Below are positions 1,425-27,485 of a DNA stretch of 64,000 nt, piece after piece. Position numbers and translations under genes: made by a program. Numbering within the stretch: the stretch's first letter is position 1; every line of letters starts with the position of its first letter. The notes under the pieces are model-generated. The model had not been told where the DNA came from. It made no database searches and worked only from the letters and a program-made list of their open reading frames with translations. The stretch is from NCBI GenBank assembly GCA_023261815.1, contig JALNKA010000001.1, positions 97,347 to 161,346 of the forward strand, given 5' to 3'. The stretch comes from Candidatus Wolframiiraptor sinensis (GTDB lineage: Archaea; Thermoproteota; Nitrososphaeria_A; Caldarchaeales; Wolframiiraptoraceae).

Positions 1425-2541
1425 GTGATCTCAATAGTTTATGTATGTGACCATAGATTATGTAGGGATGATATTTATCGTGATTATACCTCTCATTCAT
1501 CGACTTTGGATTTAGCTATAATCGCCATCGGGATCGGCTATTTTCTTACATTCCTGATGGGATTGCTCTCGGCGGGAATGATGCCGCGACTCCATGCGAT
1601 ACATCCGTGGGCGCTAGGGTCATTTCCATAAGGAACGCGCTCATACTCTTCGCGGTTTTCACGAGCCTCGGAGCGCTAACTCAGGGATACATGGTCATGA
1701 AGACCATCGGGAGGGGCGTGGTGCCGGCCATAGACCTGCTCGGAGTCCTGATAACGGTCTCGGTGGCATTCGCCTGGATAATGTTCTGCAATTACTATGG
1801 ACTCGAGATCTCCGTCACGCACTCGATAATAGGCGCCGTCCTGGGCTATGGAATCGCCGCATACAGGCTCGAGCGAGTCAACTGGAGCCTCATGTACAAC
1901 ATAATCGCGAGCTGGATAGCATCCCCCCTTCTAGCGCTGCTCATGGCCTACCTCGTCTACAAGCTTATCGCACGCGCGGTTAAGGGATATAGCTTGATGG
2001 CAACAAGGCTTATGCCAGCTCTACTCATAGCGACTCTCTGCTACTCCGCATACGCCTTCGGCACCAACGACATAGCGAACGCGACGGACGTCTATGTGAC
2101 GGTCAGCCAGATAGTCTTCGGGGGGATGCCGGAGCAGAATGTAATGCTCATCCTCGCTGCGCTGGGAAGCATCGGGGTGGCAGCTGGAGGATTCCTCCTA
2201 GGAGCTAGGGTCATAGGAACCGTGGCCTTCAAGATAACCAGGCTGGACCGATCTCGGGCTTCGCGGCCGAGCTCTCAAACGCTTTCATAGTTCACATGTT
2301 CACGACGATACCATATTTCCTACTCGGATACGGGATACCGATCTCGACGTCGCTCGCGGGGGTTGGCGCGGTGATAGGAGTTGGCCTCGCGATGTACAGG
2401 TCCGCCGGCGTGAACAAGAGAACTGTTCTAAAGCTCTTCATGGCCTGGATAGGAACCGTCACGGTGACAGCGCTCGCGAGCTACATTCTCTACACGCTAA
2501 TCGCTCCAATTACAGGCCCCATACTCAAACCAAAAGTTTAA
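1425..2541 (+). pseudogene. pit: PiT-family inorganic phosphate transporter, split into three ORFs by two apparent 1-nt deletions; may be an assembly artefact
   Basis: The PiT signature GxNDxAxxxxTSVG...AVFxxLGA appears (as GGNDAATPCDTSVGARVISIRNALILFAVFTSLGALTQG) only when reading passes from frame 0 (1425..1631) into frame 2 near 1575-1580. The C-terminal motif GFAAELSNAFIV...GIPISTS is recovered by a second shift near 2245-2250 that joins ORF 1607..2290 to ORF 2296..2541. Confidence 0.6.
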
Positions 2542-2600
2542 TTATAGTCTATGACGGAGGGTTTCAGAGGAGGTGGTTTTGGCGTTTAAAAGGCCATCCG

Positions 2601-3257
2601 ATGATCTGGATTGGCAGAAAAAGGGAGCGGGAGATGCTGAAGCTCTCCAAGCTACACTTCAACAAGGTCATGGAGCTCACGAAAACATTCAAGGAATATA
2701 TCGCCCTATACTCCGATTGCAGGCCCGAGGAATATTCCAGCAAGTATCAGCTGATCTTCAAGCTCGAGAGGGAGGCGGATGAGGAGAAGGAGAAAATACT
2801 CTCGGAGGTCTCGAGGGGGCCGTTCCACCCGATAGACCGCGAAGACATAATAGGCCTAGTCCTAGCGATCGACGATATAGCGGCTGACCTGAAATCGGCT
2901 TCCCGGAAGCTCCTATACACGGACTCGAGGAATGTGCCCGAGCCCGTTAGAAGGAAGCTCAATGGCCTCGCGAATCTCATGATGGAGATCGTCGAGAGGC
3001 TGGAAGATGCTCTCAGCGCGCTGATAGACGGGTCAAAGGACGCGCTGGGTCTCGCAGACCTAGTCGAGCGAAAGGAGGAGATAGATGAGTTCAGACACGA
3101 CCTGATAAGCGATGTGCTGATTTGGGGCGGCTCATCGGGGAAGCTCAGCGACGTCCTGATGGTGAAGGAGGCTGTGGAGAGTATCGAGAACGCGTCGGAT
3201 AGGGCTGAGGATGTCGCCGACCTCATAAGAAGAATAACGATTACTAGGACCTTGTAG
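2601..3257 (+). CDS. PhoU-like DUF47-family protein, the usual accessory protein of Pit transporters
   Basis: Lies immediately downstream of pit and has the typical helical DUF47/PhoU-like composition. Confidence 0.7.
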   Translation: MIWIGRKREREMLKLSKLHFNKVMELTKTFKEYIALYSDCRPEEYSSKYQLIFKLEREADEEKEKILSEVSRGPFHPIDREDIIGLVLAIDDIAADLKSASRKLLYTDSRNVPEPVRRKLNGLANLMMEIVERLEDALSALIDGSKDALGLADLVERKEEIDEFRHDLISDVLIWGGSSGKLSDVLMVKEAVESIENASDRAEDVADLIRRITITRTL

Positions 3258-3648
3258 CCTCGCCCATGGCTTCCTGCTCCTCCCTGAGCTTAAGAGCCTC
3301 CTCCACGGCTTTCTTAACAACGCCCTCCCCTATCTCCCTGAAAGCCCTAACTCTGAGGCTCGAGTAGTCCCAGATTATCCTTCCCTCTGATACGGTATAT
3401 GGGGCCTCTATTCTGACCAGATCGCCCTTAGATAGAGCGAGGTATTTGACGAAGGCCTCGTAGAGCACCGTGTTGAGCTCGCCCGCCGCCCTCGCGACCT
3501 CCTTAACATCAACCTCGCCGGACTTTACTTTCTGGGAGAGCTGGGCGAAGAGAACCCTCCTAACCCTATTCGCGTATGCGCCTGTAAGGACTATCCCCGT
3601 TCTCATAATCTGCTTTTCTTCGGGTTTGCCAGCCCCCTCCATAACCAA
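3244..3648 (-). CDS. hypothetical protein
   Basis: 134-aa ORF with protein-like composition; I do not recognise a family. Confidence 0.4.
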   Translation of the reverse strand: MVMEGAGKPEEKQIMRTGIVLTGAYANRVRRVLFAQLSQKVKSGEVDVKEVARAAGELNTVLYEAFVKYLALSKGDLVRIEAPYTVSEGRIIWDYSSLRVRAFREIGEGVVKKAVEEALKLREEQEAMGEATRS

Positions 3649-3732
3649 GTATATGATAATGTTAGCAGGCTTATAAGCGATCGAGACCCGGTAATCGGAA
3701 GACTTACATTATGCGCGTATACTGCTTATTTC

Positions 3733-4380
3733 ATGGCCATCCTCGGCGAGAGGGAGAGAAGGTACCTCAAATCCAAGTTCGAGAAGGAGCTCTCGGGCAG
3801 GGTTAGGCTCATCGTCTTCACGCAGGAGTTCGAGTGCGAGTACTGCGCTGAAGTCAGGGGTCTCGCAGAGGAGATAGCGGAGCTAGATGATAGGATAAGC
3901 GTCGAGGTCCACGACTTCCAGTCGGACAGGAGCCTAGCCGAGAGGCTTAAAGTGGATAAGATACCTGCCCTGCTGCTCTTCGGCGAGAAAGAATATGGTG
4001 TCAGGTTCTTCGGTATCCCGAGCGGATACGAGTTCACCACGCTCATCGATGACATCATCCAGGTCTCGAGGGGCTCTTCAAGCCTTCCTGCAAGCCTCAG
4101 GGAGAAAATTAGGCAGATAGATCGCCCCATTCACATACAGGTCTTCGTTACGCCGACTTGCCCCTACTGCCCAATAGCCGTTAAAACAGCTCATCAAATG
4201 GCCATAGAGAACGCGAACATCACCTCGGACATGATCGAGATCCTCGAGTTCCCCCACCTCGCCCACAAATACCAGGTCATGGCAGTGCCGAAGATCGTGA
4301 TCAACGATAGGGTCAGCTTCGAGGGAGCATTACCCGAGCCGATATTCGTCGAGTACGTCCTAGCCGCGGTGAAAAGCTAA
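3733..4380 (+). CDS. protein disulfide oxidoreductase with two thioredoxin-fold units
   Basis: Two CxxC motifs (CEYC and CPYC) in tandem Trx-like halves, as in the Pyrococcus PDO family. Confidence 0.75.
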   Translation: MAILGERERRYLKSKFEKELSGRVRLIVFTQEFECEYCAEVRGLAEEIAELDDRISVEVHDFQSDRSLAERLKVDKIPALLLFGEKEYGVRFFGIPSGYEFTTLIDDIIQVSRGSSSLPASLREKIRQIDRPIHIQVFVTPTCPYCPIAVKTAHQMAIENANITSDMIEILEFPHLAHKYQVMAVPKIVINDRVSFEGALPEPIFVEYVLAAVKS

Positions 4381-4416
4381 GCTTAAGCCAGGCCAGCATT
4401 ACGGGTCTAATGAAAG

Positions 4417-4785
4417 ATGTCTCTCGCGAGAATCCCCATAAAGATCGAGATAGAGGGGCTTGGAGAGCTCGATGGAGAGCTGATCAGGTTTCACGCTCCG
4501 CTAACAGTAAACGCCCTCGTCAGGATGCTTCCGATAAGTGGCGCGATCGCCAAATGGGATTACGCGATATACTTTCAGGCTCCGCTTGAGAGGGGGGCTG
4601 AGAAGCCGGTGAGCCGCGTGAGCGCGGGCGACATCCTCTACTGGCCTCCGGGAAGCTGCGTGGCGCTAGCCTTCGCCGAGGCCACTCCACCGGCTCAAAT
4701 GACTAGGATAGGCAGATATCAAGCCGACTATGAGAGGCTCAGGGATATCCGAGTGGGAGCGAGAATAATGATTAGGAAGGCCTAG
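4417..4785 (+). CDS. hypothetical protein
   Basis: 122-aa ORF with coding-like composition; function unknown. Confidence 0.35.
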   Translation: MSLARIPIKIEIEGLGELDGELIRFHAPLTVNALVRMLPISGAIAKWDYAIYFQAPLERGAEKPVSRVSAGDILYWPPGSCVALAFAEATPPAQMTRIGRYQADYERLRDIRVGARIMIRKA

Positions 4786-4788
4786 AGC

Positions 4789-5133
4789 TCACTTCTTTTT
4801 AGGCTTCTTCACCTTGACCTCGGCGAGCGCCTCCTTCACCGGCGCGTAGATCTTAAGCCTCCTATCCCCTACGATCAGCTTAACATAGCCTTTTCCGGCG
4901 AGATCGCGGAGAACCTGCCTGGCGATCGAGATCCTTACCCCAAACTTCTCAGCAAGAAGATTAGGTGTCACGTATGGTTGATCCCTCAGGAATTCTAGAA
5001 CCTCATCGGTCGGCGGTGGGATCACGCTGGCAACAGCCTTCTCCTTAACCTTGGAGCCGGCGGCTGCTCCGCCCTCCCGCGCTCTCGCGGCCTTCTTCTC
5101 AAGCTGGCTCAAGCTCGGCTTCTTCGGCGGCAT
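4789..5133 (-). CDS. rps25e: 30S ribosomal protein S25e
   Basis: The sequence MPPKKPS...VLEFLRDQPYVTPNLLAEKFGVRISIARQVLRDL is the S25e fold. An internal ATG at 5133 is preceded by GGAGGTG. The longer annotated ORF to 5298 is an upstream extension. Confidence 0.85.
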   Translation of the reverse strand: MPPKKPSLSQLEKKAARAREGGAAAGSKVKEKAVASVIPPPTDEVLEFLRDQPYVTPNLLAEKFGVRISIARQVLRDLAGKGYVKLIVGDRRLKIYAPVKEALAEVKVKKPKKK

Positions 5134-5232
5134 GACCGCACCTCCCCGCTGGAAGAAGCCAATACTCTTCATAAATATTTTCCAAGGAGGCGGTAATAGT
5201 CTAATCCAGCCAAATATGTAATAGGCCTTGGC

Positions 5233-6063
5233 GTGAGGCTGAGGGATTACTTGGCAGAGAGCATTCGGGAGGCTCCCATCGAGCACCTCCCATCCCATGC
5301 GAAGTTAATCGATAAGGTGGCCCTCGTCAGGCTGAGGGAGGAGATTGAGGGGCTGAAGCACGAGATAGGCGAGCTCATCCTCAGATTCTATAATGCTCGA
5401 GCCGTGTATCTTGTGCGGGGCGTTGAGGGTGTTGAAAGAAGGCCCCGCCTCGAGCTGATAGCAGGCGACCCCATCCGAGAGATAACGCACCGCGAATATG
5501 GCTGCATCTTCAAGCTAGATCTCACGCAGCTGATGTTCTGCCTCGGCAACAGCTTCGAGAGATTGAGGGTGGCTGGATTGACGGGCGAGGGCGAGGTCGT
5601 TGTGGACATGTTCGCTGGCGTGGGGCAATTCGCGATACCGGTAGCGGTTCTCGGAGAGCCCGAAAAGATCTATGCCATCGAGATAAACCCGCTCGCGCAT
5701 AGATATCTCCTGGAGAACGTGCGCCTGAATGATGTGGGCGATAGGGTTGAGGCGATTCTGGGTGATTGCAGGGAGATCGCGCCGAGAATGCTTAGCGGCG
5801 CCGCCGATAGGGTCATTATGGGGTATTTCGGGGGCACGATCGAGGCGCTCCGCGCGGCGCTATCAGCTCTGAAGCCGGAGGGCGGAATAATTCACTTCCA
5901 CGAGCTCGCTAGAAGAGGCGGCGAAGAGAACCTCGTGAAAGAGTTGCTGGAAACCGCCGCGAGCCACGGGTTTCACGCGCGATTGCTATTGTGGAGGAAG
6001 GTCAAGAGCTACTCGAGGACGAGGAACCACATCGTGATAGACTTTTTCGCGGCCAGAGCTTAG
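5233..6063 (+). CDS. Trm5/Taw2(TYW2)-family SAM-dependent tRNA methyltransferase
   Basis: Has the VVDMFAGVGQFAIP motif (D-x-F-A-G-x-G) and the NP motif EINPLAHRYL of the Met-10+ / Trm5 family. Confidence 0.65.
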   Translation: MRLRDYLAESIREAPIEHLPSHAKLIDKVALVRLREEIEGLKHEIGELILRFYNARAVYLVRGVEGVERRPRLELIAGDPIREITHREYGCIFKLDLTQLMFCLGNSFERLRVAGLTGEGEVVVDMFAGVGQFAIPVAVLGEPEKIYAIEINPLAHRYLLENVRLNDVGDRVEAILGDCREIAPRMLSGAADRVIMGYFGGTIEALRAALSALKPEGGIIHFHELARRGGEENLVKELLETAASHGFHARLLLWRKVKSYSRTRNHIVIDFFAARA

Positions 6064-6223
6064 ACCGCCAAACCGCGCTAGCGGTAGAGCGGAGCCGGGA
6101 ACATCGTCCTTGCGCGGAGGTATTCTCGTGAAACTACCGAGGAGGTAATGGGCTTGAAGATGAAGCATCGCGGCAGCGTGTTCCACAATCTTTATTAATG
6201 GTGGCCATGACTTCGGATTGGTA

Positions 6224-7216
6224 ATGCGGCTTAATCTTTCCAGGAGGATTTTCATCAAGCTAGCGGGAGGATTGGCTTTAGCATCTCTGGGCTTGGGAGC
6301 GCTGGGGTATTCGCTTGGATGGTTTAGTCCTTGGGAGCAAGCAGTCTTCGAGAAAGAGAGTAGAAACACTTTGCGCGCCGATGGCGAGAGGTCTCTAGTA
6401 TCCTTTGTCAGGGGTCGAGATGCTCGTGAGATGGTGAGGGCCGCGGTAGAGATCATAGGTGGCATCGAGGGGGTCGTGAAGCCGGGATCTAGGGTCCTAA
6501 TCAAGCCTAATGTCGGGTTTAACAGGGTGGAGGCGGTAACATCGCCCGAGATATTGGGCGCGGTGATAGAGCTGGTTAAAGAGGCCGACCCGGCGGACAT
6601 AATCGTAGCCGAGAGCGCCGTTCGCGGCTACGATACATCGAGCAACTTTGATAGAGTTGGGGTAAGAGAGGTTGCCAGGGAGCTGGGCGTCCGCCTGATA
6701 GATCTAGATAAGGAGGATAGGGCTGTCAAGACTAAGATTAGGGGGAGGGTTCTTCAGGAGGTTTCAGTCTTCAAGCAAGCGCTCGATGCCGACGTCATAA
6801 TAAGCGTGCCAAAGCTCAAGAGGCATTCGCAAGCAGTAGTCACGATCTCGCTGAAGAACATGATGGGCATAATGCCGGATGATCAGAAGGGAATGTTTCA
6901 CGTTCTCGGATTGGATCAGTGCATAGCCGACCTCAACACAGCGTTCAAGCCGGATCTGGCGATAGTGGACGCGATCGAGGTCATGACGGTCAGCGGCCCC
7001 GGGATGGGCAAGATGGTCCCGGGAAACGCGGTATTGGCGAGCAGGGATCCAGTGGCATTGGATCTCGTGGCCGCGGAGTACCTATTCAAGCTCGAGGGGC
7101 ACGCGGATCCACTCAGAGCCGCGATGAATGTTCCGCACATAAGGCTGGCGGCGGAGCTCGGCGTGGGCACGAACGACATATCGAGAATAGAACTGATTAG
7201 AAGGGAGCCGGGTTGA
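6224..7216 (+). CDS. DUF362-domain protein with a twin-arginine (Tat) signal peptide
   Basis: N-terminal SRRIFIKLAGGLALASLG Tat motif, and a DUF362-like core (VLIKPNVGF...TSPEILGAVIELV...VPKLKRHS). ATG at 6224. Confidence 0.6.
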   Translation: MRLNLSRRIFIKLAGGLALASLGLGALGYSLGWFSPWEQAVFEKESRNTLRADGERSLVSFVRGRDAREMVRAAVEIIGGIEGVVKPGSRVLIKPNVGFNRVEAVTSPEILGAVIELVKEADPADIIVAESAVRGYDTSSNFDRVGVREVARELGVRLIDLDKEDRAVKTKIRGRVLQEVSVFKQALDADVIISVPKLKRHSQAVVTISLKNMMGIMPDDQKGMFHVLGLDQCIADLNTAFKPDLAIVDAIEVMTVSGPGMGKMVPGNAVLASRDPVALDLVAAEYLFKLEGHADPLRAAMNVPHIRLAAELGVGTNDISRIELIRREPG

Positions 7217-7821
7217 TCAGCCGGAGGAGCCTTCTCAGGGCGATGCTGGGAGCTCTCCTCGTGCCCCTCGCAGGGGTATCAATAGCAGCCTTGCCGAGCA
7301 GGAGGGTTGTGCGGCCCCCGGGCGCAATCGAGGAGGAGCGCTTCCTAGAGATCTGCGTTCGATGTGGAGCATGCATCGAGGCCTGCTTCAGGGATGGGCG
7401 AGGGACGCTGGAGCCATGCGGGCTTCCAGATGGCCCGCCGCTAATAGGAACCCCTAAAGTCAATCCGCTTAGAGCTCCATGTGAGGCTCTTTATGGAAAA
7501 TGCGAGAATAAGTTGCCATGTATCAGGTCCTGCCCCACGGGCGCCCTGAAGTGGGTCGAGCCGGATGAGATAAAGCTCGGGTCCGTAAAATGGAGTCCAA
7601 GGCTCTGCATCGCCTTCCTCGGAGGAACATGCCTCGTCTGCGCCGAGGTATGCCCAGTGCCAGGCGCAATAACTCCGGAGGGTAGAATCCCGATCTTCCA
7701 CCTCGATAGATGCGTGGGATGTGGGCGGTGCGTATACGCGTGTCCAGCTGATCCAAAGGCTCTAGTCCTCGTGCCGGATGGGGAGGTGAGGTATCGCTGG
7801 CGAAGAGGCTCATCAAGATAA
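7213..7821 (+). CDS. Tat-exported polyferredoxin, NapG/MauM-like
   Basis: SRRSLLRA Tat motif and four Cys clusters (CVRCGACIEAC, CIRSCP, CLVCAEVCP, CVGCGRCVYACP). The TTG start overlaps the DUF362 stop. Confidence 0.6.
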   Translation: MISRRSLLRAMLGALLVPLAGVSIAALPSRRVVRPPGAIEEERFLEICVRCGACIEACFRDGRGTLEPCGLPDGPPLIGTPKVNPLRAPCEALYGKCENKLPCIRSCPTGALKWVEPDEIKLGSVKWSPRLCIAFLGGTCLVCAEVCPVPGAITPEGRIPIFHLDRCVGCGRCVYACPADPKALVLVPDGEVRYRWRRGSSR

Positions 7822-7994
7822 ACCTGCTCATAATCGCGATTGCAATCGCCATTTATCTAGCGCTGAACCTATCGGGCATAGCGAGAGGAGCATATTGCTC
7901 GCTATCAGCCGGGGGCGTAACTTTCCTGTGCCCGCTCGGCTTTCTCCAGCGCCCCGGGCTCGCTGGGGCATCATCCTGCGCGATAATCATAGGC

Positions 7995-8588
7995 GTGGCC
8001 GCGGTATTGATGGCAATACTGCTCTTAGGGAGATTCTTCTGCGGCTGGATCTGCCCCATGAGCATAGTGCTCCGCCTCCTGGGCAGTAAAGGTGCGGGGG
8101 GTAACGGCCGCCTATACATCCCCGCATTCTCGGTGAGCCTAGCCCTCATCCTACTCGCATCATGGATCATGGGATTCCCCGTATTCTGCATCATATGCCC
8201 CATCGGCATCGTAAGCAGGCTCATAATCTCGGCGCTAAGCGGGATATTGGATATATGGGGCATACTGTGGGGGGCAGCTATCTTCACGGCCACCATTACG
8301 CTGATCAAGGCGCGCGCATGGTGCAATGGCCTATGCCCATTGGGCGCGCTCCAAACGCTTCTAAGCCCTCTCAAATTAACGAGAATAAAGGCATCCCATG
8401 AATGTAAAAAGTGCAATGCTTGTGTCGAAGCCTGCCCGCTGAAGCTCGAGATTCATGAGGATCGCAGAGCTGATCAGATGAGCTGCACCACGTGCTTGGA
8501 ATGTGTTAAAACATGCCCATTTAACGCACTTAAGCTAGTCGTGATCCGCCCCCTCTCATCAGACAAATCTGGCGCGAAGAAGGAGTAA
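7995..8588 (+). CDS. NapH/MauN-like integral-membrane 4Fe-4S protein; the 5' end is uncertain
   Basis: FCGWICP and CNGLCPLGALQ motifs plus two CxxCxxCxxxCP motifs. The reading frame stays open and hydrophobic back to about 7803 without a canonical start codon. Confidence 0.6.
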   Translation: MAAVLMAILLLGRFFCGWICPMSIVLRLLGSKGAGGNGRLYIPAFSVSLALILLASWIMGFPVFCIICPIGIVSRLIISALSGILDIWGILWGAAIFTATITLIKARAWCNGLCPLGALQTLLSPLKLTRIKASHECKKCNACVEACPLKLEIHEDRRADQMSCTTCLECVKTCPFNALKLVVIRPLSSDKSGAKKE

Positions 8589-8604
8589 TCAGCTGTTGCA
8601 AAAG

Positions 8605-8610
8605 TTTTTT
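8605..8610 (+). terminator. oligo-T tract downstream of the NapH-like gene
   Basis: A T6 run 19 nt after the stop codon, in an AT-rich spacer between convergent genes. Confidence 0.35.
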
Positions 8611-8689
8611 GGGGAGCACTTCGCAAAAATTAAAACAGCATCCTGTTGCAATAATACTTCAAATTTTCACGCGAAATTGAGGCGCGTAT

Positions 8690-9124
8690 CTAGATTATTA
8701 TGCTTGCGGCGTTGGCTATTCTGGGCCAGCGCTCCGCAGCCTCCCTCGCCACGGGCCCCTTGATCTCCGTCGCCTTGAGATCGCCCTCGGGCGTGACTAA
8801 AACCGCCGCGGTATCCTCAAACATTATCCAAGTTCCATCGGGTCTCCTGTAGGGCTTCTTCTGCCTTATTATCACGGCATGCATTGGCTTCTTCCTCAGA
8901 TCTATCGGCCCCTTCTTCACGGTAACGGATACCAAGTCTCCAACGGCCGCGCATGGATGCCTTCTCCTCCTAGTCTTGATGCCATGCACCTGTATTATCT
9001 TGAGAAGCTGGGCGCCGGAGTTATCGGCGCATGGGATGAGCGAGCCCACGTTAATGGTTCTAGGTATGTCGGGCCTTCTCTCGAGAATCCCCACGGCTGC
9101 TACGGCCCTGCTCCTCTTTGACAT
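8690..9124 (-). CDS. rpl14: 50S ribosomal protein L14
   Basis: Strong uL14 similarity across the whole protein (for example GSLIPCADNSGA, TPEGDLKATEIKGPVAREAAE). Confidence 0.9.
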   Translation of the reverse strand: MSKRSRAVAAVGILERRPDIPRTINVGSLIPCADNSGAQLLKIIQVHGIKTRRRRHPCAAVGDLVSVTVKKGPIDLRKKPMHAVIIRQKKPYRRPDGTWIMFEDTAAVLVTPEGDLKATEIKGPVAREAAERWPRIANAASIII

Positions 9125-9164
9125 GCCGCACCTCCTCCTCCAAGATCTCGGGGGCTTTTAAGGA

Positions 9165-9497
9165 TCACTTTCCCTCGAGCTTCTCGATTACCACGAAATG
9201 GACGGTCTTGCTGAGCGGCCTGCACTCCGCGATTCTCACCCTATCCCCTTCCTTAACGTCCATGCACGGCGGGAGATGGGCTGGTATATTGCTCCTCCGC
9301 CGCTCATAGCGCTTATACTTCCTAACATAGTGAAGATATTCCCTCCTGACTATCACGGTCTTCGCCATCCTCTTCTTGTGGATGACCCCCGTGAGAATGA
9401 TTCCCCTAATCTTAAGGTGGCCGTGGAATGGGCATTTCGGGTCATCGCACTCCCTCTCCGGGGGCTTAACCGGTATCCCTATGTTCCTCGCGGGCAT
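9165..9497 (-). CDS. rps17: 30S ribosomal protein S17
   Basis: The uS17 pattern ([23 protein letters not shown]...[18 protein letters not shown]). Confidence 0.9.
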
Positions 9498-9575
9498 GCT
9501 CGTATCACCCTATCCTCCATAGCGCCGGTGCTGGGGCTGACTCGGAGCAGCCTCCTAAATAACGTTTCCAGACTC

Positions 9576-9863: not shown

Positions 9864-9886
9864 CGCGGAGAGTATGCTCAGGCAGC

Positions 9887-10609: not shown

Positions 10610-10619
10610 AGCCTAGCCC

Positions 10620-11828: not shown

Positions 11829-11993
11829 TTTTCAAACACTCTCCAATCGCAGAATCTCGCATAAAATGGGGAAGAATTGGTGTGGGGAAAGAATAGGGGG
11901 TTGCCGGCTCCTCAGAGCCCACACAAGCTGCAGTATTCTCCTGCCGGAACCTTTTCAGCCTTAACATCGAGTTCAACCTCTGAGGCGTTGCCA

Positions 11994-12412: not shown

Positions 12413-12437
12413 AGCCGATCACCGGCTTCAATGAGAT

Positions 12438-13097: not shown

Positions 13098-13121
13098 TTT
13101 TCACCACCTCATTCCACGTTG

Positions 13122-17434: not shown

Positions 17435-17491
17435 GCTTCCTAACCACCTCTACGTAATGGCAAGCATCATAATTATCTTTCGTCTCCGGTG

Positions 17492-19312: not shown

Positions 19313-19397
19313 CGCTCCCGATTTGTTGGAGGCTATCCGCCTTAAGGCTTTAACTATTCTAGAGCTTCAGTGAGTCAGCTCTCTAATGAGTAGAATC

Positions 19398-21704
19398 TTA
19401 GTCAGCCTCCAGATATCCGGCGGCATAAACTTGACCAACGGCGGTTCCACCATCTCCAGGTGGAATCGCCTCATTCGCTCGGATCCTGAGCCCCGAGGCG
19501 CGCTCTATCGCCGATAATATTATGCGGTTGACCGCGGCCCCACCTGAGATGCATATAGTTTTAACACCCAGCTCGCGTGCTTTCTCGGCCGCGGCGAGCC
19601 CGAGGCATTCTCCCAGCACGTATTGCGCCGTGTAGGCTAGATCATGTCTTGAGTTGTTGTCAAGATTCTCCACAAGGGCTCTCATGATCTCGCCGGTCAT
19701 TATGATGAGCGCGCCGCCCTTATCGGAGATGAAGTTATCTAAGCTCTCAATTATCGGCTCTCCGCCATGGGACGCCTCCTCCAGCATTATCGCCGGCTCA
19801 CCCTCATATGTTCTCTCGAAGCAGAGGTTTAGGAGGGCTGAAACGCTGTCCAAGAACCTGCCGGTGCTGGATGTCATGGGCCCCCTTCTCTGCCTGATCT
19901 GGGATAGAACAGCATTGAGCTCCTTGGCCCCATGCTTGAGCCCTCTTAGGAGGCCGCGCTTCCGAATGAACAATTCAACTTCATCTAAATCCATGAACTT
20001 GGAGAGAATTGATGCGAGCATTCTGACGGGTCTGATAGCTGCCAGGTCTCCGCCGGGCATAAGCGAGTATTCTAGGAATCCGGCGCGCTTGAATGCTCCA
20101 TCAGCCCATGTCAAGATCTCGCCTCCCCAGATTGCTCCATCAAGCCCGTAGCCCGCGCCGTCGATCATTATGCCCACAGCAGGCTCCTCTGGGTCGTGGC
20201 CCATCTCAGCCATGACGGAGGCGAAGTGAGCTAAATGATGTTGAACCAGCCTCAGCTCGAGCCCATTGCCGGACGCGTATTTCTCCGCGGCCTTCCTTGA
20301 ATGATAGGCTGGATGAAGATCAGCTGCGATTATGGACTTCCTCTCCTTCAGGCCATAGCACTCCGCGAGGAACTCTAGGTTGCTGATATGCTCCTCGAGC
20401 ACCTTGGGGTTATCCATATCCCCGGAGTATGGGGCTAAAATTATCTTGTCGTCGAATCCAACAGCGCCATTAGTCTCGAGATCTCCTCCAAATGCTATTA
20501 CGGGCTTCCTGAGATTATGCCTGAGCTTGAGAATTCTCGGAGCATAACCTCTCCCATATCGTAGGATCACGAGGCCGCCGTGTGTCGGCCTAACAACAGA
20601 GTCGTCAACTCTGTGAACTATCCTCCTATTATGGGTTAAGATGTAGTCAGCTATGCTCGTGAGCTCCCTTAGCCTCGAGTCATCGCTTATCATCGGGTCG
20701 CCGTGAACATTCCCGCTGGTCATCACGAGGAACTTATCCCTGGTCTCCATGAGGAGCAGGTAATGGAGCGGAGTATATGCGAGCATTATTCCGAGGCTAC
20801 GAAGCGATGGGGCCACGTAGTCGGAGACAGGGCAGCCCTCCCTCCTCGGGAGGATTATTATGGGCTTGATGAATCCGGAGAGCAGCTCGATCAAGTCATC
20901 GGGTATCTCGACTAGCTTACTCGCGACCTCCAGGTTGAGCGCCATTATCGCGAAAGGTCTCCTAGGCCTTCTCTTCCTCCTCCTGAGCTCCGACACGACA
21001 TCATCATCGCTCGCGAGGCAGGCTATATGGTAACCGCCAATTCCCTTAACCGCGACGATCATCCCCTCATCGATGAGCCTCGCCGCCTCACTCAGCGGAT
21101 CTTCGACCTCAACTCTCTCCAGATTCCTATCTAGGAGGAATAGCTTGGGGCCGCATCTAGGGCAGCTTATCCCCTGAGCATGATATCTCCTCTCATTCCA
21201 GAGATCATTATACTCGCTTAAGCACTCGCCGCATAATGGGAAGTCCCTCATCGCGGTATTCTCCCGATCATAGGGCGGCCTGTAGATCATCGAGTACCTG
21301 GGCCCGCACCAGGCGCAGCTGTTGAATGGGTACCTATACCACCTGCTCGCGGGGTTCACTACCTCCTCCAAGCAGTGATTGCATGCCGCAATGTCCTGCG
21401 GAATCTCCGAGGCCATAACTCTCTCACTGCCGCTATCGAGAATCATGAAGTCTTGGAAGCCCGCTGGCTCCAGCTCCTCGATCCTCACGACCTCGAGCTT
21501 GGCCGGCGGAGGATGCTTACTCCGAAGCAGCCTGAGGAACTCATTAACGCGATCATCCTCCGACTCGATGACAATCTCGACCTCGCCGCCGCCGAGATTT
21601 CTCACATATCCCCTCACGCCCGCGATCTTCGCTATTCTCTTGACGAAGGGCCTGAATCCCACGCCCTGAACCATCCCAGTAACGTAGATCCTCAAAGCTC
21701 TCAT
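19398..21704 (-). CDS. hypF: [NiFe] hydrogenase maturation carbamoyltransferase HypF
   Basis: Acylphosphatase domain, two Zn-finger CxxC pairs, and YrdC and Kae1-like domains (768 aa). Confidence 0.9.
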   Translation of the reverse strand: MRALRIYVTGMVQGVGFRPFVKRIAKIAGVRGYVRNLGGGEVEIVIESEDDRVNEFLRLLRSKHPPPAKLEVVRIEELEPAGFQDFMILDSGSERVMASEIPQDIAACNHCLEEVVNPASRWYRYPFNSCAWCGPRYSMIYRPPYDRENTAMRDFPLCGECLSEYNDLWNERRYHAQGISCPRCGPKLFLLDRNLERVEVEDPLSEAARLIDEGMIVAVKGIGGYHIACLASDDDVVSELRRRKRRPRRPFAIMALNLEVASKLVEIPDDLIELLSGFIKPIIILPRREGCPVSDYVAPSLRSLGIMLAYTPLHYLLLMETRDKFLVMTSGNVHGDPMISDDSRLRELTSIADYILTHNRRIVHRVDDSVVRPTHGGLVILRYGRGYAPRILKLRHNLRKPVIAFGGDLETNGAVGFDDKIILAPYSGDMDNPKVLEEHISNLEFLAECYGLKERKSIIAADLHPAYHSRKAAEKYASGNGLELRLVQHHLAHFASVMAEMGHDPEEPAVGIMIDGAGYGLDGAIWGGEILTWADGAFKRAGFLEYSLMPGGDLAAIRPVRMLASILSKFMDLDEVELFIRKRGLLRGLKHGAKELNAVLSQIRQRRGPMTSSTGRFLDSVSALLNLCFERTYEGEPAIMLEEASHGGEPIIESLDNFISDKGGALIIMTGEIMRALVENLDNNSRHDLAYTAQYVLGECLGLAAAEKARELGVKTICISGGAAVNRIILSAIERASGLRIRANEAIPPGDGGTAVGQVYAAGYLEAD

Positions 21705-21759
21705 GAGGTGCCCGGTGGAGAATGGTATCGGGGAGAATAAAAACTAGATCGGAGACCCC

Positions 21760-23058
21760 TCATTCATTGATTATCCTCAGCTTGATAACGTGGACTGAGC
21801 ACGAGATGCATGGATCATAGTTCCTTATCGTCATCTCCACAATCCGCTGCGCAGTCTCCGGCGGCCCTTTCACGATCAGATCCCCAACCTTGAATATGTC
21901 CTCCTCCATCGCCATGTAGTTCTGGGTTGTCGGCGGGATGATGTTCGCGTAAACTATTCTGCCCAGCTCATCTATCCTGTAGCGGCGATAAAGCATCCCC
22001 CTTGGAGCCTCGACTATCGCCGCCGCCTCACCAGCCCTCACCCTCGCATCAACGTATGGCGTCTGCGGCTCGGAGTACTCCTCAACGAGCCTCCCAACCT
22101 CGATTATCGAGTGAAGATTCTCGGCGGCCCTCGCAACGATGCTCTGATAAGTATTCTTGAGCGGAGCCCTATAGCCCGCCGCCTCGAGAACATCTCTAAC
22201 CTCGGGTGCTAGGAGGTCATAGTTTAGGTTGAATCTCGCGATGGGGCCCGTGATGTAGGGCTTGCCGTTCCTCAGCCTGTAATGGAGCCCATTCGAGTAC
22301 ATCTTTTGCTCGACGGTGATGTTCTCCTCGAAGGAGTCCTCGGGAAACTCCCAGCCAAGATTATTCGCGACCAATCCCTCAAGTATCGGATATTCCTTTC
22401 TGCCTTTCAGGGACATTAGTGTCATGTCGTACTGGATGTCAGGCAGATCCATGTTGAGCACGAATTCCAAGAGCTCTTCCCCCTTCCTCCTGATCTCCTC
22501 ATAGTTGCGTGATAATGGCTCAAGCTCCTCCTTTCTGATGATCCTATAGAGCCCTCCAATCCTGAAGCCTATCGGATGGATTGCTCTGCCGCCGATTATC
22601 TCTATTGCTCTATTGCCCCAGTCCCTTACGGCGATCGCGTTCCTGACGAGGTTGGGGTAATCCTTCGCCATCTCGAGCGCCGAGTGATATCCGAGGAAGT
22701 CCGGCGCATGGAGGAAGGCGAAGTGCAGGACATGACTCTCAATCCACTCGCCGTAAAAGGCTATTTTTCTCAGCACCTGTATCTCCTCCGGGACATTTAT
22801 CTCGAGTATCTTCTCCATGGCCCTGCAAGCAGCGAAGATATAGGCCAGCGGGCATATCCCGCAGATCCTCGCCGTTATATCAGGCGCCTCAAGATATGAT
22901 CTTCCACGGAGAAATGCCTCGAAGAATCTGGGAGGCTCGAATATATTGACCTCGACGTAGTCTATCTTGCCGTTCTTCACTCTTACCCAGACTCCTCCTT
23001 CGCCCTCGACCCTCGCCAGCTGGCTGACTTTTATCTCGAAGCTCTTATCCCCGCTCAT
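21760..23058 (-). CDS. hydA: sulfhydrogenase (group 3b [NiFe] hydrogenase) alpha / large subunit
   Basis: RICGICP at the N-terminus and DPCISCSVH at the C-terminus, which are the Ni-Fe ligand motifs. Confidence 0.85.
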   Translation of the reverse strand: MSGDKSFEIKVSQLARVEGEGGVWVRVKNGKIDYVEVNIFEPPRFFEAFLRGRSYLEAPDITARICGICPLAYIFAACRAMEKILEINVPEEIQVLRKIAFYGEWIESHVLHFAFLHAPDFLGYHSALEMAKDYPNLVRNAIAVRDWGNRAIEIIGGRAIHPIGFRIGGLYRIIRKEELEPLSRNYEEIRRKGEELLEFVLNMDLPDIQYDMTLMSLKGRKEYPILEGLVANNLGWEFPEDSFEENITVEQKMYSNGLHYRLRNGKPYITGPIARFNLNYDLLAPEVRDVLEAAGYRAPLKNTYQSIVARAAENLHSIIEVGRLVEEYSEPQTPYVDARVRAGEAAAIVEAPRGMLYRRYRIDELGRIVYANIIPPTTQNYMAMEEDIFKVGDLIVKGPPETAQRIVEMTIRNYDPCISCSVHVIKLRIINE

Positions 23059-23830
23059 ACCTCTCTAGGAACCTCCTTAAGGGCTCAGACCAGCTACTAA
23101 AATTCCTCAACTTGAGGATGACCTCCTCCCTTGGAAGCCCGATCTCCTCGAATCCCCTAGCGAGCGCCTCGGGCTTCGGGTCGATCATCGGGCCAAAGCA
23201 CCCATAGCATCCGCGAGCATAACTTGGGCAGAGGGCGCCGCATCCCTCAACCATTATCGGCCCGAGGCATGGTGTGCCTCGTGACACCATCACGCAGACA
23301 TTTCCCCTGCGCTTGCATTCTTGGCATAGGCTCTCGAGCCTGTGATAGGGCCTCTTCCCGACAAGCACCTGCTTCAAGACGCTCAGGAGCTGGAGCCTAT
23401 TAACTGGGCAGCCGCTGACCTGATAATCCACCTTAATGTGCTCGGATATCGGGGTGGTCTTATCAAGGCTGTTAATCCACTCGGGCCTGGGGTAAACTTG
23501 TCTGACGACATCCCCATGATCCATCCAGTTTCTCAGCGACTGAGGCCCGCCATGGACTGCGCAGGTGCCTATCGGGATCACGATCTTCGAGTTTCTCCTG
23601 ATGCTCTTTACAACCTCCATCTCGTGGGGCGTTGGGATCGATCCCTCGATTAAAGCGACATCATAGGGCCCTGGATCAATCCTGCTGCTGGCCTCGAGGA
23701 AATACGCGATCTCGACCTTCTCAATTATCGAGAGCAGGTCTTCTCCTAGGTTTATCAGCTCATCTTGGCATCCGCTGCATGAAGAGAATTTGAAGACCGC
23801 CAGCCTCAGCTTTCCACCATTCCTGCTCAT
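23045..23830 (-). CDS. hydD: sulfhydrogenase delta / [NiFe] small subunit
   Basis: SCSGCQ, GTCA and GCP cluster-binding motifs. Confidence 0.8.
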   Translation of the reverse strand: MSRNGGKLRLAVFKFSSCSGCQDELINLGEDLLSIIEKVEIAYFLEASSRIDPGPYDVALIEGSIPTPHEMEVVKSIRRNSKIVIPIGTCAVHGGPQSLRNWMDHGDVVRQVYPRPEWINSLDKTTPISEHIKVDYQVSGCPVNRLQLLSVLKQVLVGKRPYHRLESLCQECKRRGNVCVMVSRGTPCLGPIMVEGCGALCPSYARGCYGCFGPMIDPKPEALARGFEEIGLPREEVILKLRNFSSWSEPLRRFLERYERG

Positions 23831-23833
23831 ATC

Positions 23834-24661
23834 TCATCCACCCAGAAGTATTTTTTTAATGAGCCAGTACGGGAACACGGGTCCATTCTTGCGAACGAAG
23901 TAGGGGCCCACCTGGCAGTGGCCGCATAGACCGACTCCGCATTTCATCCTCCTCTCCAGGGAGAGGTAGATTTGATTCTCCTTAAACCCGACTTCCTCGA
24001 GGGCCTTGACCGTGAAACGCATCATTATCTCGGGGCCGCAAACGAGCGCAATAGTCTTTTCAATATTTATCCTAGCCATGGGTATGAGCTCGGTGACGAC
24101 GCCGACGTTATCCCTCCAAGTTTCATCGGGGTGATCAACCGTTAGCAGGAACTCTGTGTTCGGTATCTCCCTATATCGGTCGAACTCATAGCGGTAGAGA
24201 AGGAGGTTAGGCGTCCTCGCACCATAAAGTATGGTGAGCTTACCATATTTTTCTCGGTTTTTCTCGATCTCCAAAATGACCCCCCGGAGTGGAGCTAGCC
24301 CAATCCCGCCGGCCACTATGAGAACATCCTTTCCCACAAGCCTCTCAAGAGGCCAGCCCTTGCCATAAGGCCCCCTTAGGCCCACAATACTTCCCTCGCT
24401 CAGCTTAAACAGGTAATCTGTTAGGGCGCCCACGGACCTCACCGTCTGGACTATGATCCCGCCCTCTTCGCAGCCGCAGATGGAGACCGGTGTCTCGCCT
24501 ACGCCGGGAACATAAATCTCCGTGAATTGTCCGGGTTTAGGCTGCTCCACGAGCCCCCCATGAACTCTGAAGTAAAAGGTCTTGGTATCCGGCGTCTCCG
24601 GCACAACCTTAACTATCTCGGCTCTGCCAGGCGCCATGAGGGTTCTAACTATCTCTTGCAC
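23834..24661 (-). CDS. hydG: sulfhydrogenase gamma subunit (FAD/NAD(P)-binding with 2Fe-2S, PyrK-like)
   Basis: PyrK-like fold ending in a C-terminal CGVGLCGHC motif. GTG start. Confidence 0.8.
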   Translation of the reverse strand: MQEIVRTLMAPGRAEIVKVVPETPDTKTFYFRVHGGLVEQPKPGQFTEIYVPGVGETPVSICGCEEGGIIVQTVRSVGALTDYLFKLSEGSIVGLRGPYGKGWPLERLVGKDVLIVAGGIGLAPLRGVILEIEKNREKYGKLTILYGARTPNLLLYRYEFDRYREIPNTEFLLTVDHPDETWRDNVGVVTELIPMARINIEKTIALVCGPEIMMRFTVKALEEVGFKENQIYLSLERRMKCGVGLCGHCQVGPYFVRKNGPVFPYWLIKKILLGG

Positions 24662-25739
24662 CTCGTCTCCACCTCCTTAACCACATCTCTCACAACCTGC
24701 CTGACATCTATTCCCGCGGGGCACCACGTTATACATCTGCCGCACCCCACGCAGCCGAACGTTCCAAATTGCCTAAGCCAGTACACGAACTTGTGAAGAA
24801 CCCAGTGCCTATACCTAGCATAGAGACTTTTCCTGAAATGTCCTCCCGCAACCTGCGCGTAGCTGTAGCTGTGGCATCCATCTCAGATTCTAATACGTTT
24901 CGCCGATCCATCGAGCTCCGGCTCATCGAGCACGTCGAAGCAGAAGCACGTGGGGCAGACCATGTTGCAGTTCGCGCAGCCGAAGCATTTCTCAGCAGTC
25001 TTCCTGTAAACCTCAGAATTCATCCCTATCTCAAGGGTTTCAGGGAGGTTTTCCAGCGTGAACTCAACTCGAGCTCTCTTGGACGCCTCCAGCATGAGTT
25101 CCTTAAACCGGTCAACCTGCTCATCCTCAGCCGGCCTGAGATTAAGCTCGCTGAGAACATCCACGCCAAGATCGCTTCCCGGCTGAAAGATGACGACGCC
25201 ATCGCCAATTCTGGTGTAGGCTATGTCAAATCCCTTGAACGCGAAGGGGCCGGTGCCCATGGTCGCGCAAAAACAAGTCCCGCCGGGCTCTACGCAGTTC
25301 TCAACTATGAGGAGCAGGTCCTTCCTAACTTTTCTGTAATACTCGTCTCCCAGCTCGCCTTGAACACCATCCATAATGCTTATCGCGGCGAGATCGCAGG
25401 GCTTTATGCCGAAGAAAGCCGTCTTAACAAACTCTAAGCTCGGGTACTCCACGCTCAGATCAGGCTTGATGACGAATAGGAGAAGCTCGGGGGGATATAG
25501 GAATCTCTTCGGCGAGTCCGGGCCGTTCCTGAACCTGCCACCATTATTGGCGACGCGATAATATCCGGGAGCCTGCTCATCCCCATAGCCGTAAGTAATC
25601 TCGTCAATGTCTCGAGCCTAATAGCTGAATCCACGAGCTTAGGCCCTATAACCCGATAACCCCTAGAAGTCACAGCCTTAAATAGCGCCCTAAGCTCATA
25701 CTCTATTCCAGAGTAAATCGGCCCACGAAACAACACTTG
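24649..25739 (-). pseudogene. hydB: sulfhydrogenase beta subunit HydB, with a 1-nt deletion near 25607-25616 and an in-frame TGA (24873-24875) at a conserved Trp position
   Basis: Frame A reads continuously as YRVANNGGRFRNGPDSPKRFLYPPELLLFVIKPDLSVEYPSLEF...CPTCFCFDV...RIRI-TGA-DGCHS...HWVLHKF...GCVGCGRCITWCPAGIDVRQV, ending at stop 24649. The N-terminal 45 aa (MLFRGPIY...SAIRLE) are in a different frame. Confidence 0.65.
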
Positions 25740-25747
25740 TCCCGGAA

Positions 25748-25765
25748 AGGTATAAAAGGTATAAA
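25748..25765 (-). promoter_or_regulatory. tandem direct repeat of AGGTATAAA, giving two TATA boxes upstream of hydB
   Basis: Two adjacent 9-bp copies. The distal copy is centred about 25 nt upstream of the hydB GTG/TTG start, consistent with a leaderless transcript. Confidence 0.45.
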
Positions 25766-25913
25766 GTTGTTATGATTTTAACTTTTCTTTTCTCAACGAT
25801 TCTAGGACTTCAAAATTGTTGCGAATTTGATAAGGTGGTGGCAGGAGGTCGTCCATAAACTGTGGCCACGACCCGCTCGACACTGTGGATGTGATTAAGA
25901 GATCTTTACCATC

Positions 25914-26902
25914 CTATGATTGGGCCATCATCAGCCCCTTCAAGTTCGCACTTTCCACACTCACCATGTCACGGCTCAATTTGACGTTCATGTCTATTAT
26001 TATCTCCGCGATCTCAGCTGAGAGCTCGGCCTGCCTCTTCATGCTCCATATAAACTGCGTGAAGTTCGGGCAAAGCACGTTCACATCACACTTAATCGAC
26101 TTATACCTTAGTTGGTCTACGAGCTCGCTCTCCCCGAATTCCAGGTCCTCGAAATACTTCCTTATGGCCTCATTGGCCAGCTTAACATCCCTCGAGAATA
26201 GGGCTTTCATGACTTTTTCGCGAATATCTCTGCACCGCTCATAATATTTCGTCAATTTTGAAGCGTTTCTTGATCCAGCTCAACCTCGCAAGTTAGTATC
26301 TTTAGGACGCTTCTGGCGCCTAGTTTGGATAAATCTGCCATCCTCTCGAGACAGTATCCCACTATCGCGAGGAAGGATATCTCTGAGGACCGCGTAACCC
26401 CGAGCTTCTCGGCAAAGCCTTTCTTCTTATGAGCTATCGAAAGCGCCCTGGAAAACAGGTAGTAGAGCCTATTGACCTCCTCATCCCTGATCATTACCGT
26501 TTTGGCCAGCTCCCGGTTTCCCTCGATGAACGCCCTGAAATACTCCTCTTGCATAGATGAGGCCAAATTACATATTCTCTCCAGAATCGAGTATATTGGA
26601 GACTTAAGGACATCCAGCATGCATTGTAGAATGACATGCTGCTCATTTTCATCCATTATGGAAACCCCGGTCAATAGTTTCGCCGCCTCGCGAATTTCCT
26701 TAATATGCCTATAATTCAAGCGGGTCTCCGAGGAGACCTCAATCAAATCGACACCGGCAATATAGCTTCCAACAATCAGCCTATGCAGGAGGCCGGGCTG
26801 ATCGCATAAATCCGCGTTTATCCTGCATGCTTCAAGAACGTAATCCGAGCCAGCCTGGGCGGGCCAAAGAATGAGCGAGCCATCATGAGCCTCCTCAACC
26901 AC
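25914..26902 (-). pseudogene. PhoU-domain protein (two PhoU repeats) split by a 1-nt deletion at the A-run 26255-26258
   Basis: PhoU repeat (ELAKTVMIRDEEVNRLYYLFSRAL...YCLERMADLSK) in ORF 26252..26902. The second repeat continues in ORF 25914..26255 in the -1 frame. Confidence 0.55.
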
Positions 26903-27037
26903 GAGGATATCCCCCCGCTGAAGGTTATGCTCCCTAACCCACCAATAAGGTAAAGATATCGCTTAGAGTCCCCTTACCGACACGCTGTATTTTGCGCTGC
27001 TCCATCATATCCATTAGATATATGATATATATCGAGT

Positions 27038-27080
27038 CCTCTTGATACTTATCCGATGTTCTCGGATAAGTATCAAGAGG
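27038..27080. promoter_or_regulatory. perfect 19-bp inverted repeat with a 5-nt spacer (CCTCTTGATACTTATCCGA-TGTTC-TCGGATAAGTATCAAGAGG)
   Basis: Read directly from the sequence. It sits at the 5' end of the nuoE-like gene, just downstream of an AT-rich divergent promoter region (TAGATATATGATATATATCGA). Confidence 0.7.
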
Positions 27081-27485
27081 AACGGGGAAAGGAATTCGGC
27101 GAATCTTATCGAGTCTTTGCAAAAGCTGCAGGAGAGATATGGGTTCTTGCCGAAGGACGCTCTAATGAAGCTTTCCAAGGATGTGGGAGCTCCTTTGAGC
27201 AGGATATTCGGCGTCGCGACTTTCTATCACCAGTTTAAGCTGGAGTCGCCTGGAAAAGTCCTGATCTCGGTTTGCATGGGAACAGCATGCCATCTTAGGG
27301 GCGATGCCAACAACTACGAGTTCCTGAGGAGGTTTTTAAGAATAGCACCAGGCAAATCCGTCAGCGATGATGGCCTATTCTCCTTAGAGAAGGCTAGGTG
27401 CTTCGGCTGCTGTAGCCTGGCCCCAGTAGTGAGAGTTGGCGATAAGCTCATCGGCAAGGCCACGCCCAGGAGCTTCAGAGAATAA
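27042..27485 (+). CDS. NuoE/HoxE/HydC-like thioredoxin-fold [2Fe-2S] protein; the start is uncertain
   Basis: GVATFYHQF...CMGTACHLRG...CFGCCSLAPV motifs. The annotated TTG start lies inside the palindrome. An alternative ATG at 27056 in another frame gives a NuoE-like MFSDKYQEERGKEF start, which would need a frameshift. Confidence 0.7.
   Translation: MILIRCSRISIKRNGERNSANLIESLQKLQERYGFLPKDALMKLSKDVGAPLSRIFGVATFYHQFKLESPGKVLISVCMGTACHLRGDANNYEFLRRFLRIAPGKSVSDDGLFSLEKARCFGCCSLAPVVRVGDKLIGKATPRSFRE

Follow-up and report, generated by a model that had tools for sequence, protein, structure and literature searches.

In a stretch of 64,000 nucleotides (nt) from the hot-spring archaeon Candidatus Wolframiiraptor sinensis (contig JALNKA010000001.1, positions 97,347 to 161,346; hereafter the window), a series of genes that are conserved in close relatives have lost their continuous reading frames. 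They encode a Pit-type phosphate transporter and its DUF47 partner, a ferritin-like protein, several accessory subunits of two soluble hydrogenases, a regulator with AbrB/MazE and PhoU domains, and a conserved hypothetical protein of 131 amino acids (aa). An earlier note, made from the sequence of the window, had ascribed such breaks to homopolymer-length sequencing errors and had offered genuine decay as a fallback. We find a total of 13 derived lesions in nine genes (Table 1), with two lesions each in pit, hydB, the PhoU-like gene and hoxE. The lesions are derived in the window lineage wherever outgroups align, and sister strains and outgroups are intact for all nine affected genes, as judged by base-level alignments and gene calls.

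Table 1. Genes of the window that carry derived lesions, with the lengths of the full-length products in the gene calls of sister strains
Gene	Position	Strand	Lesion(s)	Sister product (aa)
pit (PiT/PHO4 phosphate transporter), pseudogene	1506-2541	+	two 1-nt deletions, three frames	345
DUF47/PhoU_div gene, partner of pit	2573-3257	+	+1 A (AAA>AAAA, 2585-2588)	228
ferritin-like (bfr/Dps-type), pseudogene	11994-12412	-	1-nt deletion, ~12084-12085	139
hydG (sulfhydrogenase gamma-like; NAD_binding_1 + DHODB_Fe-S_bind)	23834-24661	-	+1, A6>A7 (T7 on + strand, 23851-23857)	277
hydB (sulfhydrogenase beta-like, Fer4_22), pseudogene	24646-25736	-	10-nt deletion and nonsense mutation	365
AbrB/MazE-PhoU-domain regulator, pseudogene	25914-27008	-	+1 at 26962; -1 at 26255-26258	364
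hoxE/nuoE-like (2Fe-2S_thioredx)	27078-27553	+	start loss and -1	158
hoxU-like (Fer2_4 + NADH-G_4Fe-4S_3)	29524-30188	+	-1 at 30095-30096	219
conserved hypothetical 131-aa gene	61896-62290	-	-1 at 62206 (GG>G), codon ~28	

Broken genes of the window

A scan of species-representative genomes found Candidatus Wolframiiraptor (W. gerlachensis and W. allenii) to be closest among named relatives, at ~85% aa and ~80% nt identity. Sister strains with 96-98% nt identity are available for window positions 1-12540 (L015, L016, L124), 17827-35666 (L123, L127) and 49788-62958 (L043), and more distant relatives at ~72-80% nt identity served as outgroups (L017-L019, L020-L023, L044-L047). The MAGs (metagenome-assembled genomes) of sister strains include JAWBKT, JALNKY, JAWANP and JAWAIB.

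The open reading frame (ORF) listing and a three-frame translation spread pit (1425-2541, + strand) over three frames. A lone C has been lost between 1560 and 1561 (ATGG[C]GATT), which breaks the frame at residue ~19 of 345, and a CCC run has been shortened to CC at 2247-2249, which breaks it again at residue ~248. The earlier note had correctly called two 1-nt losses in this gene, but its position for the first, 1575-1580, was wrong, and that lesion is not a contraction of a homopolymer. The conceptually repaired protein matches intact 345-aa proteins at 97% (P0001, P0257) and 83% (P0002) aa identity; the Pfam PHO4 domain occupies residues 23-326 of the intact protein. In the partner gene, the inserted A shifts the opening 8-10 codons into another frame, and the present ORF begins at the ATG at 2601. 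Five of five relatives have AAA at this site. The resulting product of 218 aa still matches positions 6-212 of the 214-position DUF47 profile, and the gene is possibly still functional. Relative to sisters L015 and L124, the same gene has lost 3 nt in frame from a GAG/AGG repeat at 3072-3080, a third pit-DUF47 change, which is not disabling.

The ferritin-like gene (11912-12412, - strand) continues in a second frame of the ORF listing. Where a sister reads CTGGGC the window reads TTAG-C, and the last ~30 residues (the ...TTTATLFEKILADEEEHHDFF... helix) are thrown into another frame. The intact protein has 139 aa in sister L124 and 143 aa in L017, with the Pfam Ferritin domain at residues 12-143. 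A 1-nt deletion had been proposed for this gene and is indeed present, at ~12084 and not in the cccggg run at 12091-12096 to which it had been assigned. In the outgroup locus L017, a desulfoferrodoxin (superoxide reductase) gene (20185-20562) lies between the ferritin and flavodiiron (ODP) genes; it is absent from the window (11829-11993) and from sister L124, and hence this oxidative-stress cluster had lost one member before the ferritin frameshift occurred.

The hydrogenase region holds eight of the lesions. The insertion in hydG lies at the very end of the gene, where it exchanges the last seven residues, YFWVDEI, for ILLGG (275 aa, versus 277 aa in the sister); five relatives have A6 at this site. 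The hydB gene (24649-25736, - strand) continues in a second frame of the ORF listing and is hit twice. One copy of a tandem 10-mer, GACGAGATTC, has been lost (~25595-25611) at residue ~47, where sisters have two copies, and a TGG codon has become TGA at 24883-24885 (W285*). A frame break at ~25607-25616 had been noticed before and taken for a 1-nt event; the break is real, the size is not. At the position of the new stop, four relatives at ~73-80% identity and sister L123 have TGG, and the hydB gene of sister L127 is full-length (365 aa). TGA is the commonest stop in the window and ends 35 of 92 long ORFs; there is hence no sign that TGA has been reassigned, and the TGA in hydB is a stop. The repaired protein matches an intact 365-aa protein at 96% identity, and intact HydB proteins are found in sisters (365 aa; P0121, P0252) and in Ca. 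Wolframiiraptor species (362-365 aa). Upstream of hydB, 10-27 nt before its GTG start, the window has a 9-nt tandem duplication (25746-25763) in which AAAGGTATA occurs twice on the + strand, or an TTTATACC-like motif on the coding strand; sisters have one copy. This duplication may double a TATA-like promoter element.

The adjacent regulator gene (25914-26962 in the ORF listing, - strand) also continues in a second frame, and tblastn aligns it in three segments in frames -3, -1 and -3. The insertion at 26962 falls at codon ~15, outside any homopolymer, while the deletion at 26255-26258 is a shortening of an A run from A5 to A4, exactly as the earlier note had described it. The gene is intact, with 364 aa, in L123, L127 and L128. 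In hoxE, the ancestral ATG start has become AGG at 27078-27080, and this substitution takes the place of the frameshift that had been suspected at the nuoE-like start (27080-27100), for which we find no trace. A second lesion, GGG>GG at 27468-27470, cuts off the last ~24 residues of a protein that in the sister has 158 aa and its Pfam domain at residues 5-140. Directly upstream of hoxE, in the divergent spacer that it has in common with the PhoU-like gene, lies a perfect palindrome at 27044-27074 with a 13-bp stem and a 5-nt loop (GATACTTATCCGA-TGTTC-TCGGATAAGTATC). Sisters have the left arm alone; the window has gained 14 nt that repeat this arm in inverted orientation, as is characteristic of a template-switch mutation. 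Finally, hoxU has AAT-GTT where the sister has AACAGTT, so that the last ~30 residues are out of frame and the product is 205 instead of 219 aa long.

These results bear out the observation that pit, the bfr/ferritin-like gene, hydB and the PhoU-domain gene are each split on one strand and have intact single-frame orthologues in close relatives, with the reservation that the break in hydB does not involve a single nucleotide. They contradict the generalisation that every case is a deletion beside a homopolymer, as there are also +1 insertions, a 10-nt deletion, substitutions and four 1-nt indels outside runs of at least 3 nt (pit site 1, the PhoU-like insertion, hoxU and GG>G at 62206). The hydB TGA, the PhoU-like insertion, the hoxE deletion and the lesions of hoxU, hydG, the DUF47 gene and the 131-aa gene had not been recognised before.

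The lesions would differ in their consequences. For pit, hydB, the ferritin-like gene, hoxE and the regulator, the breaks lie inside or beside functional domains recognised by Pfam. The protein parts removed by both lesions of pit (~19 and ~248 of 345), by both lesions of hydB (~47 and W285*) and with the last helix of the ferritin are judged essential. We infer that pit and hydB are null alleles, and the ferritin gene is probably one as well. The terminal lesions in hydG, hoxE, hoxU and the DUF47 gene may merely impair or modify the proteins.

Recurrence among assemblies and intact alleles in sister strains

Exact-protein matches to the hydG product identified 20 NCBI contigs of metagenome-assembled genomes (MAGs), and matches to a flavoprotein gene (10620-11828) identified 11 further contigs. 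The ORF at 11-1354, which is truncated by the edge of the window, gave no match. Comparison of the window by BLASTN with 14 loci (L001-L014) from 11 separately assembled MAGs gave identities of 99.83-100%. Over positions 620-34661 there are no gaps in any of these loci, apart from an additional intergenic A at 15152 in L013, and the lesion sites within this interval are invariant, with zero indel differences in the 11 assemblies. Each locus differs from the window by 0-28 single-nucleotide polymorphisms (SNPs), often clustered. As the loci carry SNPs and one intergenic indel, they are not copies of each other but come from slightly differing strains, assembled independently. Up to 16 contigs have entries for fragments (81, 227 and 263 aa) of the broken pit gene.

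The SNPs that separate these near-identical assemblies are tightly clustered, at window positions 18310-18968, 19720-21113 and 10378-10436; in one locus (L004), for example, all 28 SNPs of a 16-kb stretch fall within 660 bp. Such clusters suggest short recombination tracts between strains.

Five of the MAGs can be identified from the supplement of Qi et al. (2024; PMC11094006), as JAWBIO (GMQS_201601_bins_3), JAWBDW (GMQP_201808), JAWBFQ (GMQP_201901), JAWBFV (GMQP_201907_bins_15) and JAWBID (GMQP_202101); the Gumingquan samples belong to BioProject PRJNA544494. According to this source they derive from separate samples of Gumingquan, a Tengchong hot spring, taken in January 2016, August 2018, January 2019, July 2019 and January 2021, and all five are classified as Caldarchaeales, f__NZ13-MGT, g__EX4484-121 (PMC11094006). 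The methods of that study give Illumina HiSeq 4000 sequencing and a SPAdes assembly for each sample, and the JAWBIO MAG is listed with 1.24 Mb, 97% completeness and 89% coding density (PMC11094006). The broken alleles are thus stable in the traced samples for at least five years, from 2016 to 2021.

The possibility that homopolymer miscalls or systematic assembler errors made the breaks has to be weighed against these data. Six of the ten coding 1-nt indels do lie in ancestral runs of at least 3 nt, which make up 13.5% of window bases (P=8e-4), and this is the typical context of such errors. However, the 11 independently assembled MAGs agree with one another, among them five separate Illumina/SPAdes assemblies spread over five years, and the differences between the assemblies mean that they are not mutual copies. 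The same contexts are intact in five sister MAGs whose accession numbers share the prefixes of these assemblies (JAWA/JAWB and JALN series). The 10-nt deletion, the TGG>TGA and ATG>AGG changes and the indels outside runs are not products that homopolymer error can give, and the lesions are clustered by gene, with 8 of 13 in 6.25 kb (P=7e-6). An artefact is therefore in effect refuted. The earlier note had regarded homopolymer-accurate reads and closely related genomes as the means of deciding the matter; the separate Illumina/SPAdes assemblies of 2016-2021 confirm the assembled lengths in substance, and the sisters at 96-98% nt identity carry the affected genes intact.

The lesions are thus present in many independent assemblies and derived, and intact alleles persist in sister strains. 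They do not stem from sequencing, and very probably reflect genuine, recent and lineage-specific pseudogenisation that has been fixed in the nearly clonal Gumingquan population. The decay that had been kept as a fallback is supported by their reproducibility, the intact sister alleles, the multiple hits to single genes, the point-mutation lesions and the clustering.

It could be argued that the breaks are real but bridged during expression, with -1 ribosomal frameshifting or transcriptional slippage restoring full-length proteins. Most breaks do need a -1 shift, the ratio of nonsynonymous to synonymous substitution (pN/pS) is low in both halves of the broken genes, as in a functional gene, and hydG contains an A7 tract. 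Nevertheless, the shift sites are not conserved, as every relative, including the 96-98% sisters, has a single frame, and inspection found no X XXY YYZ slippery heptamer at any site. Furthermore, hydB would need 10 nt and contains a TGA in frame, +1 insertions account for three of the shifts, the tracts other than the A7 of hydG are at most 5 nt long, and the sites show no length polymorphism among assemblies. We consider programmed recoding highly improbable. Phase variation and transcriptional slippage are likewise unsupported, as the tracts are 2-5 nt long except for the A7 of hydG and no length variation occurs among the 11 assemblies.

Distribution of the lesions and the remainder of the window

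The lesions are unevenly distributed, with 12 of 13 in the first 30.2 kb (P=9e-4) and one in 30.2-64 kb. To polarise changes we used three-way MAFFT --auto alignments, ignoring apparent large deletions at 27012-27023 that are an artefact of a divergent intergenic spacer. With outgroup polarisation, the window branch has 13 indels and 148 substitutions, compared with 2 and 99 on the sister branches (Fisher P=0.053). Substitution density is 31-51/kb at 24-28 kb and 3-36/kb in the flanks; an increase as modest as this gives no sign of an imported divergent tract.

These counts bear on the idea of a mutator or a bottlenecked clone, in which elevated slippage due to a replication or repair defect, or a tiny effective population, would fix slightly deleterious indels throughout the genome. 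The higher ratio of indels to substitutions on the window branch is in keeping with this idea, as are the indel classes, which are all of the slippage or template-switch type, and the near clonality of the population. However, the indel excess is marginal, and a genome-wide process sits poorly with lesions that are strongly clustered within the window and number one beyond 30.2 kb. We therefore think such an origin quite doubtful.

Within the two hydrogenase operons, all six frame-shifting indels are in the 4.15 kb of accessory genes (hydG, hydB, the regulator, hoxE and hoxU), whereas none are present in the 6.75 kb of hydA, hydD, hoxF, hoxH and hoxY (accessory versus catalytic genes and hoxF, P=0.003). 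The catalytic subunit genes also have the same lengths as those of the sisters. This contrast may indicate adaptive remodelling, in which the catalytic subunits are kept while HydB, the HydG C-terminus, HoxE, the HoxU C-terminus and the PhoU-type regulator are shed or altered and H2 metabolism is rewired; the stability of the alleles over five years would fit as well. Decay at an early stage, with only a few genes of an operon affected so far, would however be expected to leave the same pattern. In group 3 [NiFe] hydrogenases the known electron path runs via HydB and HoxE/HoxU, and without HydB and intact HoxE and HoxU this path would be broken. Remodelling therefore appears unlikely to us. 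A more specific form holds that the electron-transfer and diaphorase partners (HydB, the HydG tail, HoxE and the HoxU tail) and the AbrB-PhoU regulator are being selectively dismantled while selection continues to maintain HoxF and the catalytic [NiFe] subunits, so that both soluble hydrogenases would be rewired to new redox partners, possibly together with elevated slippage; this we would rate as quite unlikely.

Several points weigh against pseudogenisation as the explanation for all of the lesions. Five terminal lesions (DUF47, hydG, hoxE start, hoxE 3' end and hoxU) may be tolerated and not disabling. Relaxed constraint is not visible in the substitutions, as pN/pS, which is based on few substitutions, is 0.10-0.27 in broken genes and 0.07-0.28 in intact neighbours, the value for tmcA being invalid owing to an offset frame; this similarity would fit very recent inactivation and does not prove loss of function. 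The excess of indels in the window lineage is of marginal significance, the published supplement links five of the 11 assemblies to a sample, and the evidence consists of assembled sequences.

Genuine pseudogenisation nevertheless remains our favoured reading, and a simple mechanism can be envisaged for it. Replication slippage and template-switch errors in the genome would produce gains and losses in short homopolymers, the loss of a 10-nt tandem-repeat copy, the 9-nt tandem duplication and the 14-nt inverted duplication, and ordinary point mutations would be added to these. Such mutations may not be purged from genes that have grown dispensable or are weakly selected, and relaxed selection, a clonal sweep or bottleneck, or both, could then have fixed them.

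Lesions of this kind are not confined to the window lineage. We screened relatives with a tblastn search based on non-overlapping longest ORFs, which avoids spurious antisense ORFs. No lesions were found in 23 kb of sister stretches (L015, L123 and L043), and in the two longer sister contigs the genes are called at full length. The 20-kb loci L017, L018 and L020 gave about one lesion each: a thioredoxin-like gene shifted near its C-terminus (L017, 12172-12904), a DUF362 gene split into 93 and 350 codons (L018, 15918-16968) and a PhoU-like gene with a premature stop at codon ~325 (L020, from Ca. W. gerlachensis A8, 8723-9856). Real or apparent lesions are thus occasional in the family, yet the window lineage stands out.

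A six-frame codon-bias scan flagged further same-strand overlapping frames as candidates, which were then tested against relatives. The lesion in the 131-aa gene is the single case beyond 30.2 kb; full-length 131-aa homologues with 65-99% identity occur in several sources, and 61896-62290 is hence a real gene. Other candidates were rejected. The frames at 36324-37579 are ordinary nuoA/B/C-like genes, those at 39943-40902 are three small Mrp/Mbh-like membrane subunits, two of which share one frame only in L035, and those at 54105-55468 are an ATP-binding cassette (ABC) permease/ATPase pair with the usual ATGA-type overlap. The boundary at 61895/61896 reflects an ordinary indel at a stop/start junction, and indels at 51048, 52177, 58517, 58583 and 61893 lie in untranslated or junction sequence and are not lesions. 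For the flagged segments 47068-49593 and 58660-59569, the relative-ORF scan showed no frame break and, from 49788 onwards, neither did the gaps between the window and L043.

A frameshift at ~7800 in a NapH-like gene, which had been suggested as a further case, is not present: here the window has the same sequence as sisters L124 and L125, and from L017-L019 it differs by a 3-nt indel alone. The napH-like frame (7752-8588) is open from 7752 and has no ATG, GTG or TTG before 7995, both in the window and in these two sisters. The first predicted membrane segment is thus without a canonical start, with CTG where L017-L019 have TTG.

Two neighbouring systems look intact. One is an Mbh/Mrp-type membrane-bound hydrogenase-like cluster with nuoA/B/C/D-like genes and antiporter subunits (36330-45940), which was scanned up to 43378, where the relatives end; the other is the ABC permease/ATPase pair (54105-56355), which may be a tungstate transporter. 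Both contrast with the decayed soluble-hydrogenase region.

Relation to known systems and implications

The changes in the window are of a kind already known, namely unitary pseudogenes that arise by slippage and point mutation; what is new is their occurrence in these genes of this uncultivated lineage. In Mycobacterium leprae, Shigella and Sodalis, for example, slipped-strand indels and point mutations have turned genes under relaxed selection into unitary pseudogenes, and interrupted genes are known in the Sulfolobales. As in those cases, the lesions of the window are derived and disabling, close relatives have intact orthologues, single genes are hit more than once and short repeats are favoured. 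The affected genes also form modules, such as the pit-DUF47 pair and the hydrogenase accessory subunits. In contrast to the classic lineages, the MAG is only 1.24 Mb in size and its coding density, at 89%, is normal, the lesions are known from a 64-kb window, and the substitutions do not yet reveal relaxed constraint, which would make the events very recent.

Other systems are similar in part. Homopolymer errors of 454, Ion Torrent and nanopore sequencing also cause single-base breaks, and in the window the majority of the 1-nt events are in short runs. Unlike such errors, the lesions are reproduced across assemblies, of which the five traceable ones are Illumina-based, include non-homopolymer events, a 10-nt deletion and substitutions, and are clustered by gene. 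Programmed -1 ribosomal frameshifting is known in archaea from the alpha-L-fucosidase gene fucA of Saccharolobus solfataricus. There, as in the window, overlapping ORFs offset by -1 jointly encode one conserved protein. The sites in the window, however, have no slippery heptamer, the split is not conserved and the same genes contain extra lesions. Phase-variable contingency loci change expression by length variation of simple-sequence repeats, and indels in short homopolymers switch the frame in the window also; yet the tracts concerned are 2-7 nt long and show no length polymorphism in 11 assemblies, five of them spanning five years.

For annotation, these results imply that the split ORFs at 1.4-30.2 kb and 62.2 kb are best treated as fragments of pseudogenes and should neither be 'repaired' nor taken as novel small genes. 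More generally, a comparison across assemblies can separate real frameshifts from errors without recourse to reads.

The broken genes sit in gene calls as separate protein-coding fragments, and hence published metabolic summaries of MAGs could count them as functional. The hydrogenase table of Qi et al. lists a group 4g enzyme for the representative MAG (PMC11094006). As the large subunits of the soluble hydrogenases are intact and their partners broken, gene presence would overstate the capacity of the organism, and the same would apply to phosphate uptake by Pit and to ferritin. The window thus appears to show a natural, near-clonal population of a hot-spring archaeon caught early in gene loss, a situation that is unsurprising in kind and may be useful for population genomics.

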